13,436 bases of DNA from Alphaproteobacteria bacterium (lineage in GTDB: Bacteria > Pseudomonadota > Alphaproteobacteria > UBA8317). Every line of letters begins with the position of its first letter. Within the stretch, counting starts at the first letter, position 1. Below are positions 4,405-13,078 of this stretch, piece after piece. The stretch is taken from assembly GCA_038131935.1 (NCBI GenBank), contig JAYPQH010000040.1:1-13436 (forward strand), in the 5' to 3' direction. Under the pieces are notes generated by a model. That model saw only the letters and a program-made list of their open reading frames with translations, was not told the origin of the DNA and searched no databases. The position numbers and the translations under genes are program-made.

Positions 4405-4419
4405 TTGAGGACACACGCT

Positions 4420-5372
4420 ATGGGCACCCCTGTTTTGGAAGTAAATCGGTTAACCGTGCATTTGAAGAAGCGCAAAAATATATTTAAGGTTATCGATGAT
4501 CTGTCGTTTGAGGTGTATCCGGGGGAAATTCTAGGTCTTGTTGGCGAGTCTGGTGCAGGAAAATCCATAACAGGATCTGCTATTATTGGTCTTATAGAAC
4601 CACCGTTATTTATCTCATCAGGTGAAATTAGTCTTCATTCGAAAATAATTGATCATCACACACAAAAGCTGCGTGGCACAGAAATTTCAATGGTTTTTCA
4701 GGATCCTTTAATGAGCCTAAACCCATTGCGTCGCGTGGGTGATCAGCTGGTTGAGACGATAGACGCATATCAAAATGTCAAAATCTGACGCCATAGAGCG
4801 GGCAAAGCAGCTGTTAGCTGAAGTTGGCATTGATCCAGCACGTTTCAATACCTATCCCCACACATTTTCTGGAGGGATGAGGCAGGAGTGGTGGTTGCAC
4901 TTGCTTTGCTCCCGAACCTTCACCATCATTGCAGATGAACCAACAACAGCTCTCGATGTGTCTGTGCAGGCGCAAATATTACGGTTGCTGAAAACACTCT
5001 GTAGCCAGAGGGGCACGGCTATAATTTTGATCACCCATGATATGGGCGTGATTGCACAAACTGCCGATCGGGTGGCTGTGTTGTACGCAGGTCGTTTGGC
5101 AGAAGTGGGGCGTACTTATAAAATTTTACATGCTCCAAAGCACCCTTACACAAAGGGCTTGGTTGCTGCGACACCTAAAATTGATGCTTCTTCAGTTGCA
5201 CAAAAACTTTACCAAATTCCTGGATCCATACCCAGTTTGGATCAAATACCTACTGGCTGCGCATTTCACCCAAGATGTGCTCAGGCGGTTGCAAAATGCC
5301 AACAAGCTCGGCCTCCTCTTTTGTCAGGAGGCGGCATGTTGGCTCCTTGATGGAAACGAGGGTGCAATATGA
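4420..5372 (+). CDS. ABC transporter ATP-binding protein, DppD/OppD-like; one gene with several frameshifts
   Basis: Walker A GESGAGKS and Q-loop MVFQDP are in ORF 4405..4788. Signature FSGGMRQ, Walker B IIADEPTTALD, H-loop ITHD and GCAFHPRC are in ORF 4775..5350. The family C-terminus AACWL is in a third frame ending at TGA 5372, which overlaps the next ATG (ATGA 5369-5372). The likely start is ATG 4420 behind GAGGA at 4407-4411. Confidence 0.9.
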
Positions 5373-6288: not shown

Positions 6289-7434
6289 ATGATGACGCAA
6301 GAAAAAATCCCAGCGGTTTTTGTCCGAGGAGGTACCAGCAAAGGTGTTTTCTTTCATGCGAAAGATCTTCCCGCGTCACAAAGTGAGAAGGATCAAATGT
6401 TTCTGAAGGTGCTTGGAAGCCCTGATCCGTATCAAAGACAGCTTAACGGTATGGGAGGGGGGCTCTCATCTGTGTCAAAGGTTGCAATTATTGAACGGTC
6501 AACGAGACCAGACGCAGATGTTGATTATACGTTTGTCCAAATTGCAGTTGACAAACCCATTGCAGATTATGGTCAAGCTTGTGGTAATTTATCAGCATCT
6601 GTTGGACCTTTTGCCATTGAGGAAGGTTTGCTGAAGGTTCAAGACGGAGAGGTGACAGTCCGCGTTTATAATACCAACACAGACAAAATCTTTCATGCAC
6701 ATTTCCAAGTGCGCCACGGTCGTGCGGTGGAAATAGGTGATTTTGAAATGTCGGGTGTTGCGGGGTCAGGTGCGAAGATAAAACTTGACTATATTCATCC
6801 AGGTGGTGCCAAAAGTGCAGCTTTTCTTCCTACTGGTCATCAAACCGATAGTACGAAGCTTGCAGATCTAGGTCTCATAGAAATGTCGCTTATTGATGCT
6901 ACAAATCCCGTTGTTTTTGTGCGTGCTGTAGATTTTGGGATCACAGGCCATGAGGCACCAGACATCCTTGAATCCAATAATGATTTGATGTCCAAACTTG
7001 ATATTGTTCGCCGTCAGGCGGGCGTTATGATGGGATTATCTTCCAAACCTGACAGCGTGGCACTCTCAAATCCCAAAATTGCACTTTTATCAACACCGGC
7101 TGATTATCAGACGATAAGTGGAGAATTTGTGGCCGCTGATCAGTATGATATTGGCATCCGAATTGTTTCCATGGAGCGTATGCATCGCGCGGTAACAGGA
7201 ACTGGTAGCATGTGTCTCGCTGCAGGCTGTCAGGTGGTGGGAAGTTTGCCCCATCAACTGGCTAACAATATTGAAAAAGGAATGGATGTGCGTATTGGAA
7301 CCCCTTCTGGTGTCATGGTTGTGGCCGCAAGTGCAAGTCAGGATAGCGATGGAATCTGGCATGCTCATAGTGTTACGGTCTATCGAACCCAGCGAAGATT
7401 GATGGAAGGGTTTGTTGTGTTGCCTCGGGGATAG
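6289..7434 (+). CDS. PrpF-family isomerase (diaminopimelate-epimerase fold; aconitate/methylitaconate/oxalomesaconate isomerase-like), substrate unknown
   Basis: 381 aa. N-terminal RGGTSKG, GSPDPY..Q..GMGG..S..SKV, catalytic CGN, DATNP and SMERMHRA..GTG motifs. An AAGGA RBS lies just upstream. Confidence 0.92.
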   Translation: MMTQEKIPAVFVRGGTSKGVFFHAKDLPASQSEKDQMFLKVLGSPDPYQRQLNGMGGGLSSVSKVAIIERSTRPDADVDYTFVQIAVDKPIADYGQACGNLSASVGPFAIEEGLLKVQDGEVTVRVYNTNTDKIFHAHFQVRHGRAVEIGDFEMSGVAGSGAKIKLDYIHPGGAKSAAFLPTGHQTDSTKLADLGLIEMSLIDATNPVVFVRAVDFGITGHEAPDILESNNDLMSKLDIVRRQAGVMMGLSSKPDSVALSNPKIALLSTPADYQTISGEFVAADQYDIGIRIVSMERMHRAVTGTGSMCLAAGCQVVGSLPHQLANNIEKGMDVRIGTPSGVMVVAASASQDSDGIWHAHSVTVYRTQRRLMEGFVVLPRG

Positions 7435-7612: not shown

Positions 7613-8152
7613 TCAGACGACGCCGGTATATTCACCACGCGCTGGGTAATTTTTTGCGATAGCAAAATCCAAAGCTTTCACAAGTTCTGAAAAATGTGGC
7701 CTAACAAAAGGCATGGTTTGAACAGACCCGTAGTATAATGTTTGTTCAGGCGTGATCATGAATAGACCTGGCTCTGAAAATAGTGCTGGTTCTTCAATGC
7801 CAATGGATGTCGTTCCCCTTGATGTCGAAAGATACAAACCCCATTCCCGCGCCTTTGAAAGAGGTAGGTCAAAGCCAAGTCGTAAACCGTCAGCGCCAAT
7901 TTTGTTGGCCATGTCACGGGTCCTGACTTCATCGTCAGTGCTGATCGCTATGGTACCCACGCCACGTTGTGCAAATGCAGATACAAGGTTTTGAAACTCA
8001 GACAAATACGTGGCGCAGATTGGGCAGTGAAGCCCACGGTAAAAACAGATAACTGTTCCTCGCTCATATGATTCTTCCGCAAGATTGAAAACACCATGAT
8101 CCAAGGTTGGAAGGAGCAAATCAGGTACTTTCTGTCGAGGTACAAGCATCAT
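7613..8152 (-). CDS. Peroxiredoxin-like AhpC/TSA family protein (thioredoxin fold, CxxC)
   Basis: 179 aa. Motifs FYRGLHCPIC, AISTD, FSEPGLF, QTMPFVRP and YPARG. GAGAGG RBS at 8163-8158. Confidence 0.9.
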   Translation of the reverse strand: MMLVPRQKVPDLLLPTLDHGVFNLAEESYERGTVICFYRGLHCPICATYLSEFQNLVSAFAQRGVGTIAISTDDEVRTRDMANKIGADGLRLGFDLPLSKAREWGLYLSTSRGTTSIGIEEPALFSEPGLFMITPEQTLYYGSVQTMPFVRPHFSELVKALDFAIAKNYPARGEYTGVV

Positions 8153-8251
8153 AAATTCCTCTCGGTATATGCGTGATGGATCACATGAAAAATATTGAAC
8201 GCAAACAAAGAACTTAAAGATGCTTGGGTAAAAGGCAAGAAGGAAATCAAT

Positions 8252-9988
8252 TTAGCTTGATTTTGTATACTTTTCAGGAAGTTCTAACCATTTGCGTTCT
8301 GCTTCGTCCCAGCTCGATAATGCTTGCCAATCAGGCACCCAAGCAAGCCCCGTCTTGCTATCTGATGAGATCGCGGTTGGGCTTGTCACAACATCGATCA
8401 ATACAGGATGTCCTGATCTGAGTGCTGTGAATGCTGCATTAAGAACATCATCAATGTCTTCTTCGTTTTCTACACGCCATGCTTTCAATCCAAAGCCTCG
8501 GGCCATGGCTGCGTAATCAGCAGCTTGAAGCTGGGTCCCCACAACTTTGCCAAAACGTTCGAGTTGATCACGGACTTCAATAGCCCAAGAGCCATTGTTG
8601 CTGACAACGATCATGATAGGGACTTTATGTCGTGCCGCGGTGTCAATTTCCATAGCAGAAAACCCGAAAGCCCCATCACCTGTTACAGCTATGACCTCTC
8701 TATTGGGTGCAGCCTTCGCCGCACCTATGGCAAATGGTGTCGCCAGGCCGATACATCCCAAAGGCCCAGGATCAAGATAAGTTGTTGCGGGTAGTGCAAT
8801 GCGCGAAAAACTCAGGAAATCACCACCATCAGCAATAATAATCGCCTCTGGATCCATTTTTTGACGTATTGCTCCGAGTAATCGATTGGGATGGATACGA
8901 CCTTGATCATCGCTTGGCGCGGTTAACAAATTTTGACTCAATTTGTTGCTGCGCTCATGGTGCTTTGCCCGCATGGTTTCGAGCCAAGATCGCTTTCTAA
9001 GCTTAGAATCTAGCCGCTGTGCGAGTGCATCAAGGCTAAAGCCAACATGGCCAAGTACGCTCACATCTCCCAATCTATTATCTATGAGTTCTTGGGCCAC
9101 ATCAGAAATACGTAGGAAATTGGCATCGCCAAAAATAGCTTTCGCACCATAAGCCAACTGAAAATCTAACTTTCTTCCAATAGTAATAACCAGATCAGCC
9201 TCTTGCATGGCTGCGCCACGCACCGCACCGATATAAGAAGGGTGGCTTTCAGCAATAAGCCCTTTTGTTTCTCCAGTATCAAGATAGCCAGCAGCGGAAG
9301 CTTGCAGAAATCTCTCTAGAGGCTGAGCGTAGCCTAGAGCTCCGCGGCCTGAAATAACCACAGGTTTTTCAGATTTTTTGATCAATTGAGCGGCGGCATC
9401 CAGTGCATCATCCATGGCGCGCGATTGTGGTTTTGGTCTACCTGTGATTTGTTCCACCATAAATAGGTTGCGTGGCAACATTTCTCTTTGGACATCAACA
9501 GGAAAATCTAAAAAACTTGGGCCCGGCTCACAACCTACACCAAGTGCTGCAGTTATCGCGTTATCCAATTCTCTTGGCAGTGCTGTGGCATGACGGACGG
9601 TCCGTGCAACCCTTGTGATTGAGCTTACCAAAGCAACATGGCTCATATCTTGGAGGGCACCACGGTTTTCTTGGGGGCGTGGTGGTGTGCCTGAGAGTAC
9701 AAGAACAGGAACGCGGCTTATATGCGCATTGGCAATGCCGGTCATGGCATTGGTGACACCAGGCCCAGCGGTCACCAGCGCGACGCCAAAATTCCCCCCC
9801 ACAGCCGCATGGGCATGCGCCATATAGATAGCAGCGCGTTCGTCTCGGACGTCCACAATTTCAATGCCCTGGGCGTCAAGTGCCATCCAAATGGGCATAA
9901 TATGACCACCACAAAGTGCGAAAACACGCTCTATGCCGCGGGCTTTTAAAACTGAAGCAATAAGATGTGCGCCTGTATGATCTTGCAT
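8252..9988 (-). CDS. ThDP-dependent enzyme, probable 2-hydroxyacyl-CoA lyase of the actinobacterial AcHACL (2-hydroxyisobutyryl-CoA lyase) type
   Basis: 578 aa. General ThDP motifs: VRDE (cofactor-activating Glu), TAGPGVTN and GDG...NN. Subfamily-like motifs (compared from memory with AcHACL): GGHIxPIW, IHPNR, ADGGDxLSF, ELIDNRxG, NNxxWxIE and the C-terminal SxDSxxGLxxVPDxQALxxWxxAE. The ThDP-enzyme call is near certain; the HACL subtype is less so. Confidence 0.8.
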   Translation of the reverse strand: MQDHTGAHLIASVLKARGIERVFALCGGHIMPIWMALDAQGIEIVDVRDERAAIYMAHAHAAVGGNFGVALVTAGPGVTNAMTGIANAHISRVPVLVLSGTPPRPQENRGALQDMSHVALVSSITRVARTVRHATALPRELDNAITAALGVGCEPGPSFLDFPVDVQREMLPRNLFMVEQITGRPKPQSRAMDDALDAAAQLIKKSEKPVVISGRGALGYAQPLERFLQASAAGYLDTGETKGLIAESHPSYIGAVRGAAMQEADLVITIGRKLDFQLAYGAKAIFGDANFLRISDVAQELIDNRLGDVSVLGHVGFSLDALAQRLDSKLRKRSWLETMRAKHHERSNKLSQNLLTAPSDDQGRIHPNRLLGAIRQKMDPEAIIIADGGDFLSFSRIALPATTYLDPGPLGCIGLATPFAIGAAKAAPNREVIAVTGDGAFGFSAMEIDTAARHKVPIMIVVSNNGSWAIEVRDQLERFGKVVGTQLQAADYAAMARGFGLKAWRVENEEDIDDVLNAAFTALRSGHPVLIDVVTSPTAISSDSKTGLAWVPDWQALSSWDEAERKWLELPEKYTKSS

Positions 9989-11574
9989 TATATCTTCTCC
10001 TCAATAAGGGTGTTTTTAAGGTGCCTTTGGCGCAGTACGCGGTGAAGAATTTTTCCTGTGGCCGTTCGTGGCATGTTTTCTTCTTTAATGATGGAAACAG
10101 AGCGAGGACGCTTATATCCTGCTATCTTCCCTACACACCAATGCACCAATTCAATTTCGGTGATGTTAACATTGGGGCAAAGCACAACAATAGCGTGCAC
10201 AGCTTCACCCCATAGCGTATGTGGTATGCCAATGATGGCGACATCTTGAACGGCCTCATGTTGTGCCAAAATAGCCTCAATTTCTGAAGGGTAGATGTTC
10301 TCTCCACCAGAAATAATCATATTGTTTTTCCGGTCTACGAGCTTAATAAAACCATCTTTGTCACGAATGGCCATATCACCAACACTACACCAGCCCCCAC
10401 GAAAGGCAGCAGCGGTCTTGTCGGGTAAATTCCAATAACCAGAAAATGTGTAAGGTGTACGTGAGTACAACTCACCTGGGCACCCATCAGGGACCTCATT
10501 TCCGTGATCATCAATCAATTTTATTGCTGCAGATCCGATACATTCCCTTCCAACAGTTCCAAGATGTTTAAATTGTTCGTCTGGATGCAGCATGGTCACC
10601 CAACCTGCTTCAGATGAACCATAAAGCTCAAAAAGACCCGCTTTGGGAAACATGCGCATAATATCTCGTTTGGTTTCTGCACGCGCCGGCGCAGAAGATA
10701 TCATAAGTTTTGTGACGCATTCCAATCTGCTGGTGTTGCGCTGATGGTCTGGTAAGGAGAGCATCATGATATATTGAGTTGGTACCATTGATGTGAAGCT
10801 GCATTGATATTGGCCCATAACCTCCAAAAGTTCTTGGGGGTCGAAATGGCGGCGCGCGTAGATTGTAATAGCTGCACCTGCATAGGCGAAAGCACAAAAG
10901 AAGTTTAATGAATTCGCATGGCATAATGGCATTACCAAAAGAGCGTGATCATTTTTGCCGATGGACAACTCAACATCAGTGGTTAAGGCCAACATGGCCA
11001 TACCATGGTGATCACGAATGACACCTTTAGGGGCACCCGTTGTCCCAGAAGTATACATGATCGTCCAAGGGTCTTGAGGTTCTGCAGAGGGTAGAAAATC
11101 GCGTTTGACGGCTGTCTCTATCAGTTTTTCATATGACAACCAATGAGCGGGTGGTGTTCCACCAAAATAAATAAAATGATCGTTTAAAATGCTTAAATCG
11201 TCTCTTATGGCGTCAAGCTGTTCATGTAATCCTTCCTGGGCCAACAATGCAGAAGCATCGCAATCTTTAAGTATATAGAGTATTTCTTGTGGTGAAAGCC
11301 GGAAGTTTATAGGTACGACCACAATCCCAGATTTGGCTGCAGCAACATAAATTTCTAGCCATTCAAGACAGTTCCACGCAAGTACGCCAACCCTATCACC
11401 CTTATGTAAACCAAGGTCTTGAAAAGATTGTGCCAGTCTCTCGGAACGTTCGCTCCATTGTATGTAGGTAAGGGTTCGGTTGATATCTCTGACAGCAATT
11501 TTATGGGGGCTAACGCGCACAAAGCTATCAAGTACTTCATGAAGCAAAAGGGGGCTGTTCTGTTGCAAGGTCAT
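9988..11574 (-). CDS. AMP-forming acyl-CoA synthetase (class I adenylate-forming CoA ligase)
   Basis: 528 aa. Motifs YTSGTTGAPKG, PLCH, YGSSE, SVGD, DRKNNMIISGGENIYP and PRTATGKI. Its stop overlaps the ThDP-enzyme start (TAATG, 9990-9986), with GAGGAG upstream inside the ligase gene. Confidence 0.95.
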   Translation of the reverse strand: MTLQQNSPLLLHEVLDSFVRVSPHKIAVRDINRTLTYIQWSERSERLAQSFQDLGLHKGDRVGVLAWNCLEWLEIYVAAAKSGIVVVPINFRLSPQEILYILKDCDASALLAQEGLHEQLDAIRDDLSILNDHFIYFGGTPPAHWLSYEKLIETAVKRDFLPSAEPQDPWTIMYTSGTTGAPKGVIRDHHGMAMLALTTDVELSIGKNDHALLVMPLCHANSLNFFCAFAYAGAAITIYARRHFDPQELLEVMGQYQCSFTSMVPTQYIMMLSLPDHQRNTSRLECVTKLMISSAPARAETKRDIMRMFPKAGLFELYGSSEAGWVTMLHPDEQFKHLGTVGRECIGSAAIKLIDDHGNEVPDGCPGELYSRTPYTFSGYWNLPDKTAAAFRGGWCSVGDMAIRDKDGFIKLVDRKNNMIISGGENIYPSEIEAILAQHEAVQDVAIIGIPHTLWGEAVHAIVVLCPNVNITEIELVHWCVGKIAGYKRPRSVSIIKEENMPRTATGKILHRVLRQRHLKNTLIEEKI

Positions 11575-11600: not shown

Positions 11601-11633
11601 ATGAATACTGAATTCAGAATTCATAAAAGTCAA
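11601..11633 (-). promoter_or_regulatory. Sigma70-type promoter of the ligase-lyase operon overlapped by a 24-bp palindromic operator
   Basis: On the minus strand, TTGACT (11633-11628) is followed by 17 nt and then CAGTAT (11610-11605). The palindrome ATGAATACTGAATTCAGAATTCAT (11601-11624) has a single mismatched pair and covers the spacer and the -10 element. Confidence 0.7.
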
Positions 11634-11677: not shown

Positions 11678-12355
11678 TCATGAAGATTGCTGTGCCAAAG
11701 CTTCAAGCAGAGCTTTCTTTGCACCGATGATATGATCACCAACCAAGGCTATGACTTGGTCTTTATGACCCGAAACCAATAGATCCAAAATATCTCTATG
11801 TTGTGACCATACGATGGATGCCCGATTTGCGTGTAGCAACACAGAAACCATAACCCTGCGTAAATAGGTCCAATGTGTGTCAGCGGCGGTCGCTATCAAA
11901 GGATTACCGGACATATCATACAAAAAGGTATGAAAACGAACATCTTGTTTTACAGCTTCAACAGCATCAATATCACGAGATCTCTCACCCTCGTGAAGAA
12001 TGACATTGCCTTTGGTTTGTAAGATATCTGCAAAATGAGGGGTTTCCGCCACACGTTGTACGATAAGTTTAGCTGCAAGCTGATCAAGTACCAATCGGAT
12101 GTCGTAATGTTGGCTGATACGTAAAGGGTCAAGGGGGGCTACGTAAAGGCCGCGTGCACCATGCTCAACAACCAATCCATCAGTTTTGAGAAGCAACATG
12201 GCTTGTTGCACAGGCTGACGTGATACGCCCAAGGTAGCCGCAAGTTCTTCTTGTACAAGATGTTTTCCAGGTTCAAGCCGACAATCGCAGATGCTATCGC
12301 GGATCATTTGGTATACCAACTGAGTTCTGCTGGGGTTATGAGCAATAGGTTTCAC
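11678..12355 (-). CDS. GntR-family transcriptional regulator (FadR/FCD C-terminal domain)
   Basis: 225 aa with a GTG start and GAGG upstream. The wHTH reads LEPGKHLVQEELAATLGVSRQPVQQA...GLV. FCD motifs are DVRFH...SGNP and QHRDI...H. Confidence 0.93.
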   Translation of the reverse strand: MKPIAHNPSRTQLVYQMIRDSICDCRLEPGKHLVQEELAATLGVSRQPVQQAMLLLKTDGLVVEHGARGLYVAPLDPLRISQHYDIRLVLDQLAAKLIVQRVAETPHFADILQTKGNVILHEGERSRDIDAVEAVKQDVRFHTFLYDMSGNPLIATAADTHWTYLRRVMVSVLLHANRASIVWSQHRDILDLLVSGHKDQVIALVGDHIIGAKKALLEALAQQSS

Positions 12356-12652
12356 GTTTAATGACGCCTCGATTGAAAAAGTCCTTAGTAAGGTCTTACG
12401 CGTTTCTTGGTGCAGATCTCAAGTCATCAATGGGTTCTGTTGTATTTTGTGGGATCAAAAAAACTTTTCCAAGACAAGAAACCTGTTAGCTTTGTTCATC
12501 CTAACGATAAAATCATGCTGCTCTTGTCGTTGATGTTGTTAAGGTTTTGCCATTTGGTTCGGCCACACCTTGTCTCCTATGCTTAGTTATGTGCATGTGA
12601 GGTGTCATCATGGACAAAAGAGAATAACCTCAATCGGAAAAGGAAGTGTCAG

Positions 12653-13078
12653 TTGGAACTTAATTTAGAAAAAGCACAAGCTATCATCGCACATGCTCTT
12701 GAATGGCGCCGTTCTCATAATCTTAACCCATTAACGGTATCTGTCCTTGACGCCAGTGGGGTTTTGATGGCGCTCGCTAAAGAAGACGGTGCCAGTAATT
12801 TTCGTCCAGAAATTGCCCAAGGAAAGGCACGCGGCGCCATAGGTATGGGTATAGGGTCACGCGCTTTGTTTACCCGCGCGCAGGAACAGCCATATTTCAT
12901 TCAGGCAATGAACTCCATTGCAAATGGTTCCTTGGTTCCGGTGCCAGGTGGTGTTTTGATCAAATCAGATGGGGTTATATTGGGAGCCGTTGGCATTACC
13001 GGTGATACATCTGACAATGATGAAGCATGTGCCATCGCTGCTATTGAAGCTATTGGTTTTGTCGCAGATCCTGGCTGA
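12653..13078 (+). CDS. GlcG/HbpS-family (heme-binding, DUF336-type) protein
   Basis: Motifs VSVLDASG, IAQGKA, GGVLI and GAVGITG..SDNDE.CA. The likely start is TTG 12653 (MELNLEKAQAII) 6 nt after AGGAAG at 12641-12646, rather than GTG 12602. Confidence 0.9.
   Translation: MELNLEKAQAIIAHALEWRRSHNLNPLTVSVLDASGVLMALAKEDGASNFRPEIAQGKARGAIGMGIGSRALFTRAQEQPYFIQAMNSIANGSLVPVPGGVLIKSDGVILGAVGITGDTSDNDEACAIAAIEAIGFVADPG

Follow-up and report, generated by a model that had tools for sequence, protein, structure and literature searches.

Which reaction is carried out by a thiamine diphosphate (ThDP)-dependent enzyme encoded directly behind an acyl-coenzyme A (CoA) ligase in an alphaproteobacterial genome, and which acid do the two genes serve? 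This question is raised by contig JAYPQH010000040.1, whose 13,436 bases make up the whole window and which is one of the 67 contigs of a 2.48-Mb genome that is 89.9% complete. The host, which is marine, is an alphaproteobacterium, as seen from a two-piece alpha_tmRNA in the genome (162 bits), for which only Caulobacter was positive among 14 control genomes. We propose, with a probability of about 0.65, that the ligase (P0002) and the ThDP enzyme (P0001) form a catabolic unit under repressor control that breaks down a small 2-hydroxy acid, most likely a tertiary C4–C5 acid such as 2-hydroxyisobutyrate or 2-hydroxy-2-methylbutyrate.

A preliminary description of the window had put forward, without an alignment, a motif-by-motif resemblance of the ThDP enzyme to AcHACL, the lyase that cleaves 2-hydroxyacyl-CoA in Actinomycetospora chiangmaiensis DSM 45062 (also HICL/S; PDB 7PT1-4 and 9QZ4-7), and all of those motifs are present in P0001 and align to the same motifs of 7pt1_A: GGHIMPIW, PPRPQENRGALQD, EPGP, ISGRGA, ELIDNRLG, IHPNR, ADGGDFLSF and VPDWQALSSW. 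In the NCBIfam search P0001 scored 719.1 bits over profile positions 9–571 of 575 on NF058623, the equivalog model named 2-hydroxyacyl-CoA lyase (cut-off 600 bits), while PRK05858 (361.6 bits), the oxalyl-CoA decarboxylase (OXC) model (251.3 bits), the biosynthetic IlvB-type model (243.4 bits) and Xsc (209.1 bits) each stayed under their own cut-offs. Among PDB structures AcHACL 7pt1 gave 549.6 bits over residues 7–564, against 221.7 for OXC/HACS, 183.2 for the catabolic acetolactate synthase and 178.9 for benzaldehyde lyase (BAL); P0156, taken as a representative of the family core, scored 1042 bits with NF058623 and 733 bits with 7pt1. In two quick maximum-likelihood trees of 37 rows each, which carry support from the Shimodaira–Hasegawa-like approximate likelihood ratio test (SH-aLRT) only, P0001 and P0156 fell inside a single AcHACL-family clade (SH-aLRT 97–100), with the PRK05858-like proteins P0170, P0182 and P0185 and the genome's own paralogue outside it. 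Since scores and trees agree in placing P0001 with AcHACL, the expected grouping with this enzyme rather than with IlvB, Xsc, OXC or BAL is borne out, and by these measures P0001 is an AcHACL-type 2-hydroxyacyl-CoA lyase. The family itself is known and structurally characterised, and one of NCBI's curated models already detects P0001. The expectation that automated annotation would call such a protein acetolactate synthase was right only in part: source names of close homologues do include 'acetolactate synthase I/II/III large subunit' as well as 'thiamine pyrophosphate-binding protein', but the current NCBI equivalog already names the family 2-hydroxyacyl-CoA lyase.

Enzymes of this kind turned out to be common outside the actinobacteria, and the non-actinobacterial context that had been put forward as exceptional is not so. 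A scan with one genome per species gave at least 599 pattern matches and at least 557 confirmed relatives, of which the best 80 are used below as the related loci. None of these best 80 carries an actinobacterium in its title; five titles are alphaproteobacterial, most of the rest belong to Burkholderiales or other Betaproteobacteria, one is from Granulosicoccaceae and one is a metagenome-assembled genome titled Synechococcus (L066), which has a typical betaproteobacterial layout and is probably mislabelled or misbinned. The carriers include cultured strains, for example Pseudooceanicola onchidii XY-99 (L017) and Piscinibacter sakaiensis 201-F6 (L084). In an even sample of the alphaproteobacterial class 18 of 401 genomes passed the lyase cut-off, the window's genome included (14 of 337 when only good-quality genomes are counted), and the other 17 provide the class-sample loci, bringing the related loci with neighbours viewed to 97. 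An initial sample of 61 genomes had given no pass apart from the window's genome; a genome of the same genus (84% complete) had failed.

The residues on which the AcHACL reaction depends are also in place. Using the 7pt1 alignment, where chain number equals native number plus 11, we assigned P0001 positions to AcHACL numbers manually and compared 81 sequences, namely P0001 and the lyases of the 80 related loci (three of the 80 translated stretches held a stop arising from upstream extension and were retained). Residue roles were taken from PMC8760513 and PMC13327070. The retained pairs (AcHACL/P0001) are E65/E50, G43/G28, H44/H29, T88/T73, L127/L112, Q128/Q113, I492/I470, E493/E471, D496/D474, L566/L548 and V569/V551, and the catalytic and pocket residues are invariant in all 81 sequences, as is a cysteine at position 26 discussed below. 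The ThDP machinery is represented by E50, equivalent to E65, together with GDG at 437–439 and NN at 464–465, all invariant in the multiple alignment. In AcHACL, E493, on the helix that follows the Mg loop, serves as the acid/base Glu, and Q128 holds the thioester carbonyl (PMC8760513, PMC13327070); their counterparts E471 and Q113 are found in 81/81 sequences, and so is each of the residues of the small acyl pocket, L112, I470, L548 and V551. The side chains that fill the ADP site of OXC in AcHACL (R107, R230, E256, R288, D312, E316) correspond to R92, R215, E240, R272, D296 and E300, six positions that are conserved or conservatively replaced across the set, and the CoA contacts R257, R346, R396 and D543 are retained in P0001. 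The C-terminal lid (AcHACL 556–590) is present as well: the 7pt1 alignment reaches residue 564, 42 residues run from 537 to the C-terminus, and 8 of the 12 residues of the lid break-out segment are identical between the two proteins.

Against this background a small number of positions have changed from AcHACL to P0001: Q41 to C26, Q255 to G239, S274 to G258, K564 to T546 (with K545 adjoining), F568 to W550 and Y572 to W554. The first of these, the one exchange that falls in the active site, divides the family, and we refer to lyases as Q-type or C-type according to the residue at P0001 position 26. P0156 and 12 alphaproteobacterial proteins are Q-type and agree with AcHACL at every one of the 12 catalytic and pocket positions; P0001, the 80 related loci and five further alphaproteobacterial proteins have Cys and are C-type. 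A tree rooted at its midpoint only was built from nine proteins, 12 of the 80 related loci and, with the truncated L102 excluded, 16 of the 17 from the class sample. All 12 Q-type rows group in a single clade of this tree (SH-aLRT 100), and the C-type rows lie across that branch in two clades of 15 and 3 rows. The Q-type lyases of the class sample (12 of 401 genomes; L102 and L112–L122) share with the window the order GntR, ligase, lyase and a P0002-type ligase, whereas they keep Q41, Q255 and K564 of AcHACL, and F568 in 8 of 12, where P0001 differs, and score 998–1076 bits on NF058623 compared with 719 for P0001. P0001 itself sits in a small alphaproteobacterial subclade with L016–L020 (support 100), and the nesting of this subclade among beta- and gammaproteobacterial C-type sequences suggests transfer between classes.

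In the window the lyase is the third of four genes that follow one another on the minus strand, as follows.

11678–12355, minus strand: GntR-family regulator with an FCD effector domain (Pfam GntR 55.1 bits, FCD 58.6 bits), preceding the ligase gene in the same orientation.
11609–11633, minus strand: predicted promoter/operator region, with a −35-like TTGACT (11633–11628), 4 nt, and the palindrome TGAATTCTGAATTCA (11623–11609).
9988–11574, minus strand: AMP-forming acyl-CoA ligase P0002, 528 aa, FadD-like (Pfam AMP-binding 267 bits, AMP-binding_C 64.3 bits).
9997–10002, minus strand: GAGGAG, predicted ribosome-binding site of the lyase within the 3' end of the ligase gene, read from the sequence.
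8252–9988, minus strand: ThDP-dependent 2-hydroxyacyl-CoA lyase P0001, 578 aa, AcHACL/HICL family, C-type (assigned from NF058623, PDB 7pt1 and the trees).
7613–8152, minus strand: AhpC/TSA-fold protein P0154, 179 aa, with a CPIC motif (Pfam AhpC-TSA 55.5 bits), 99 nt past the lyase.

The overlap of ligase and lyase that had been reported at the outset is confirmed by the list of open reading frames (ORFs) and by the minus-strand sequence (GAGGAGAAGATATAATGCAAG): the ligase stop TAA (9990–9988) and the lyase ATG (9988–9986) have one base in common, giving TAATG, and the Shine-Dalgarno-like GAGGAG at 10002–9997 lies 8 nt 5' of the lyase ATG. A one-base overlap between stop and start is an ordinary operon feature and unremarkable alone. 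P0001 shows the Pfam domains TPP_enzyme_N, TPP_enzyme_M and TPP_enzyme_C, and, again as first described, neither an ilv gene nor an acetolactate synthase small subunit was found among the 16 non-shadow ORFs scanned on the 13.4-kb contig (11 shorter overlapping ORFs were left out of the scan). The transcription unit may end with P0154. Since the AhpC-like gene and two further neighbours, PrpF-like and HbpS-like, gave no tblastn match at E<=1e-10 in the 80 related loci, and so are without conservation there, we kept all three out of the module.

The partner ligase proved to be less like the known system than the lyase. Its best NCBIfam match is PRK06187 (445.9 bits, under the cut-off of 476) and its best PDB match is FadD5 (259.2 bits), while the PaaK model gives it only 11.5 bits (E 0.084). 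The 2-hydroxyisobutyryl-CoA synthetase HCL, by contrast, is PaaK-like (PMC8388817), and its structure 6hdw sits among PaaK structures in the PDB search and is not among the 42 PDB hits of P0002 at E<=1e-40; this comparison with HCL draws on the PDB, the PaaK model and papers. The C-terminal domain of P0002 is PF13193, whereas the genome's own PaaK-like protein has PF14535. P0002 contains YTSGTTGAPKG, LVDRKNNMIISGGENIYP and PRTATGKI, which we take to be the ANL P-loop (TSGTTGxPKG), the hinge Asp and the catalytic Lys of motif A10. From these features P0002 appears to be a FadD-like member of the ANL acyl-CoA synthetase class and a candidate short-chain 2-hydroxyacid-CoA ligase. The pairing with a CoA ligase on the Actinomycetospora pattern stands as far as the pairing itself goes, which is conserved across loci, but the ligase is not of the HCL type found in that cluster.

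How closely the ligase follows the lyase can be seen from the related loci. A P0002-type ligase at 44% identity or more is present in 53 of the 80 (L032 has a 54th, truncated and just below 44%), and of these 39 are adjacent and divergent, five are adjacent on the same strand (the alphaproteobacterial L016–L020, which share this layout with the window) and nine lie farther off within the locus. Eleven loci have a different ANL ligase, 25–29% identical to P0002, directly upstream on the same strand, and 15 show no ligase, seven of which have less than 1.7 kb of upstream sequence. Among 60 relatives without the lyase the best match to P0002 is 38% identical; in five lyase-bearing genomes the best match is 52–68% identical and lies within the lyase locus, the next paralogues being at most 33% identical. 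In all 12 Q-type alphaproteobacterial loci a P0002-type ligase (52–58% identity) stands directly upstream of the lyase on the same strand. Judged by these identities, P0002 represents an orthologous group of its own that tracks the lyase, and its constant pairing with Q-type lyases is the best indirect argument that P0002 would act on the same kind of substrate as HCL.

Three observations on ligases stand beside this result. The different ANL ligase, a third type, occurs in 11 betaproteobacterial loci (L029, L031, L049, L053, L054, L063, L064 and L091–L094) together with the same GntR gene and operator, and its best PDB matches are FadD13 and oxalyl-CoA synthetase. Piscinibacter sakaiensis 201-F6 (G064) has a second P0002-type ligase, 55% identical, away from its lyase locus (C1:3766571-3768097). 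A PaaK-like ligase of 467 aa on another contig of the window's genome (C35; L128 6663-8066) was considered as a possible HCL and rejected, its PaaK score of 156 bits exceeding its HCL score of 140 bits; neither a lyase nor a mutase is encoded around it, its neighbours being genes for two amidases, a nitrilase-family hydrolase, PrpD-like proteins and a nitroreductase, and C35 fits the bin less well than most contigs (GC 40.7%, correlation 0.923).

A regulator and its presumptive target complete the module. GntR/FCD homologues were detected in 63 of the 80 related loci (tblastn E<=1e-10) and in 9 of the 17 class-sample loci. The 103-nt gap between the GntR gene and the ligase holds the palindrome and the TTGACT, the latter being a −35-like hexamer read by eye; a sigma-70 scan found no promoter in this gap, and overall it gave 1 site compared with 9.2 in shuffles. 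The window contains four overlapping operator matches at no more than two mismatches, where 0.10 would be expected, and the exact 15-mer recurs in 12 other loci. At the same tolerance the operator is present in 59 of the 80 loci compared with 0.2 per 80 in shuffles; in 38 loci it lies no more than 400 nt upstream of the lyase, and elsewhere it lies at the start of the ligase or regulator gene. Five of the 17 class-sample loci have it, all of them Q-type. L016 and L017, although both much richer in G+C, carry the operator in the same position after TTGACA/TTGACT. The GntR/FCD regulator and the palindrome accompany the pair across Alpha-, Beta- and Gammaproteobacteria, and by the locus counts and operator statistics the set of regulator, operator, ligase and lyase stays together even in loci with another type of ligase. 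The GntR/FCD protein is a probable repressor of the ligase–lyase pair, with a conserved palindrome at the target promoter.

Comparison with characterised systems places the unit closest to that of Actinomycetospora. AcHACL and P0001 belong to the same family, align over their full length including the C-terminal lid, and have the catalytic Glu, the Gln, the pocket residues and the filled ADP site in common, and in both organisms genes for a CoA ligase and for a regulator of the GntR family are clustered with that of the lyase. For the actinobacterial cluster the published order is GntR, lyase, HCL, MpdC, MpdB (PMC7176365, Table 1); here, in an alphaproteobacterial host, the ligase precedes the lyase, the window has no mpdB/mpdC diol-oxidation genes, and a FadD-like ligase of 528 aa with AMP-binding_C stands in place of the PaaK-like HCL of 465 aa. 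HCL of Aquincola tertiaricarbonis (PDB 6HDW) presumably does the same job as P0002, the ATP-dependent CoA activation of a short 2-hydroxy acid, and both presumably precede a CoA-dependent enzyme that rearranges or cleaves a C–C bond. HACL1, RuHACL, ApbHACL-S and OXC resemble P0001 in their dependence on ThDP and CoA, in an intermediate at the formyl-CoA level and in the three-domain fold, and the HACLs catalyse the same overall reaction; they give only 188–222 bits against P0001, however, and are described as binding ADP, having short C-termini, accepting long acyl chains and lacking an equivalent of E493 (PMC8760513, PMC13327070). The PRK05858 type is the next most similar NCBIfam family, although P0001 is under its cut-off of 587 bits, and the 'putative mycobacterial HACL' P66947 of that type also has an E493-type Glu (PMC13327070).

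From these parts a working scheme can be drawn for the proposed catabolic unit. The GntR/FCD protein would bind the promoter-overlapping palindrome and release it in the presence of the acid or of its CoA ester. To judge by family, adjacency and co-occurrence, the FadD-like ligase would then use ATP and CoA to make the 2-hydroxyacyl-CoA. By analogy with AcHACL, the ThDP ylide of the lyase would attack the thioester carbonyl, the C1–C2 bond would be cleaved and a ketone or aldehyde freed (acetone in the case of 2-hydroxyisobutyryl-CoA), after which Glu471 would protonate the carbanion and formyl-CoA would leave. Speculatively, formyl-CoA probably passes to a family-III CoA-transferase or a thioesterase; at least ten family-III CoA-transferase genes, possible handlers of formyl-CoA, are present in the genome.

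Several points weigh against this scheme. In AcHACL, Q41 is hydrogen-bonded to E493 and positions it, and P0001 has Cys26 at this place, as do all 81 C-type sequences of the residue set; the role of Q41 is uncharacterised according to the authors (PMC13327070). In the lid, P0001 has Trp in place of both F568 and Y572. Because the ligase is not HCL-like, the acid specificity of P0002 is only inferred. No acetone or formate route was found in the 89.9%-complete genome: the best match to the formate dehydrogenase alpha subunit reached 151 bits compared with a cut-off of 666, and acetone carboxylase gamma (PF08882) and a di-iron monooxygenase (PF02332) gave no match, although this last result is uninformative, all 14 control genomes being silent too. 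The genome is metagenome-assembled and the contig with lyase and ligase is only 13.4 kb long; its composition matches the bin (GC 44.7% compared with 45.5%, tetranucleotide correlation 0.979), contigs of up to 465 kb hold members of the cluster of proteins at least 90% identical to P0001, and two proteins of this cluster are labelled 'Alphaproteobacteria bacterium'. Expression is hinted at by contigs of four RNA libraries from three studies (seawater, marine or unspecified metagenome) that match the locus at 95% identity or more, one bridging the ligase/lyase junction (9409–10051) and another the lyase and the downstream AhpC-like gene (7686–8336). These contigs are a hint only, because they show no strand and DNA can occur in such libraries, and stretches of the locus without them carry no information. 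Finally, the available sections of PMC7176365, PMC8760513, PMC13327070, PMC11271303 and PMC13188929 report no activity or substrate for proteobacterial members.

The alternative that survives best, which we consider possible though clearly less probable, keeps the chemistry and changes the acid: the natural substrate would be lactate, glycolate, 2-hydroxybutyrate or a functionalised acid such as 2-methylglycerate rather than 2-hydroxyisobutyrate, and the C-type clade and the FadD-like ligase would have evolved for it. The exchanges Q41C, Q255G, S274G and F568W relative to AcHACL are found in all or nearly all of the 81 sequences, the ligase is of another ANL subfamily than HCL, AcHACL binds (S)-2-methylglyceryl-CoA (PMC13327070), and varied feeder routes are hinted at by recurrent neighbours in betaproteobacterial loci, namely a pyrroloquinoline quinone (PQQ) alcohol dehydrogenase, a short-chain dehydrogenase/reductase (SDR), an acyl-CoA dehydrogenase with an APH-type kinase, and a tripartite ATP-independent periplasmic (TRAP) transporter. 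However, the residues that size the acyl pocket, L127, I492, L566 and V569, are unchanged in P0001, three of them being invariant and I470 being replaced by Val in 1 of 22 sequences compared, and the same type of ligase is paired with Q-type lyases that equal AcHACL at every catalytic and pocket position compared.

Since the Cys at the place of Q41 is invariant, the lid has Trp residues, the ligase belongs to its own FadD-like family and the operator is shared, we also entertain, more tentatively still, the idea that the C-type clade constitutes a separate, horizontally mobile regulon for a different abundant small 2-hydroxy acid, here a marine one, in which Cys26 may confer redox sensitivity or an altered proton relay. 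Redox sensitivity of this kind could explain the thiol-peroxidase-fold genes beside the lyase here and in four betaproteobacterial loci. There, a peroxiredoxin-glutaredoxin hybrid is encoded beside the lyase on the opposite strand (L049:7704-8438, L063, L064, L092). Such neighbours are noteworthy because the clade has an invariant active-site Cys, and they may be due to chance.

A much less probable alternative to the catabolic reading is that the lyase works in the condensing direction in vivo, so that acetone or an aldehyde would be assimilated by condensation with formyl-CoA, as has been proposed for Desulfococcus biacutus. The AcHACL reaction is reversible (PMC8760513, PMC13327070) and an acetone-assimilating role has been discussed for a distant ThDP enzyme (PMC7176365), whereas an acid-CoA ligase in the same operon and a regulator of an acid-sensing type fit the catabolism of a free acid; a 2-hydroxyisobutyryl-CoA mutase gene was not noticed in the window or the 97 related loci viewed, with no mutase-specific search made. 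That P0001 is instead an acetolactate synthase, an OXC, a sulfoacetaldehyde acetyltransferase or some other ThDP enzyme, as the older names of close homologues would have it, is most improbable, given that those NCBIfam models score it at 209–251 bits compared with cut-offs of 538–739, that OXC has Glu at the Q113 position and no E493 equivalent (PMC13327070, Table 1), that the ADP site of OXC is filled in P0001, and that neither small subunit nor ilv gene lies among the 16 ORFs scanned.

In the sections available of the five papers named above for activity, the family is called actinobacterial, HCL is the only partner and proteobacterial orthologues are not mentioned; proteobacterial members may already be included in the alignment of PMC8760513 Fig. 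S5 or among the 134 screened homologues of PMC11271303 Fig. 1. What goes beyond these sections is the FadD-like partner ligase and the GntR/FCD regulator with a palindrome shared across proteobacterial classes; together with Cys26, the ligase and the shared operator are the features that mark this variant. AcHACL-type lyases are sought as catalysts that add a C1 unit, as formyl-CoA, to ketones and aldehydes, and the large conserved proteobacterial set of regulator, operator, FadD-like ligase and lyase offers many natural Q-type and C-type variants to screen, a second ligase family for making 2-hydroxyacyl-CoAs and a ready-made inducible regulator/operator pair. The locus also suggests that seawater bacteria turn over small branched 2-hydroxy acids, and it identifies records labelled 'acetolactate synthase' or 'TPP-binding protein' for renaming.

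Other genes of the window lie outside the module. A PrpF-family isomerase (6289–7434, plus strand) is convergent with the lyase operon just beyond its end; the models for 2-methylaconitate isomerase and 4-oxalomesaconate tautomerase give it 328.7 and 311.9 bits, respectively, each under cut-off. An HbpS/GlcG-like protein (12602–13078, plus strand) is divergent from the GntR gene. An Opp/Dpp-type ATP-binding cassette (ABC) transporter is represented by genes for a family-5 solute-binding protein and an OppD-like ATPase, each in two frames (917–1636 / 1656–2459 and 4405–4788 / 4775–5350); split frames also occur on contig C4 of the genome (22586–22960 / 22948–23547), and recA and several CoA-transferase genes elsewhere in the genome are likewise split. 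No long homopolymer was found at the two split sites of the window, and because recA and CoA-transferase genes show the same kind of split, indel errors in the assembly and true pseudogenes are equally likely.

Around the betaproteobacterial lyases (for example L021, L026, L039, L042 and L047) several neighbours recur, counted with an ORF filter of limited accuracy for DNA rich in G+C: a fused TRAP DctQM transporter in 10 loci, an SDR in 12, an acyl-CoA dehydrogenase in 10 with an APH-type kinase in 7, a PQQ alcohol dehydrogenase in 8 and a small Rieske-like protein in 7. These recurrent neighbours hint at different feeder routes.

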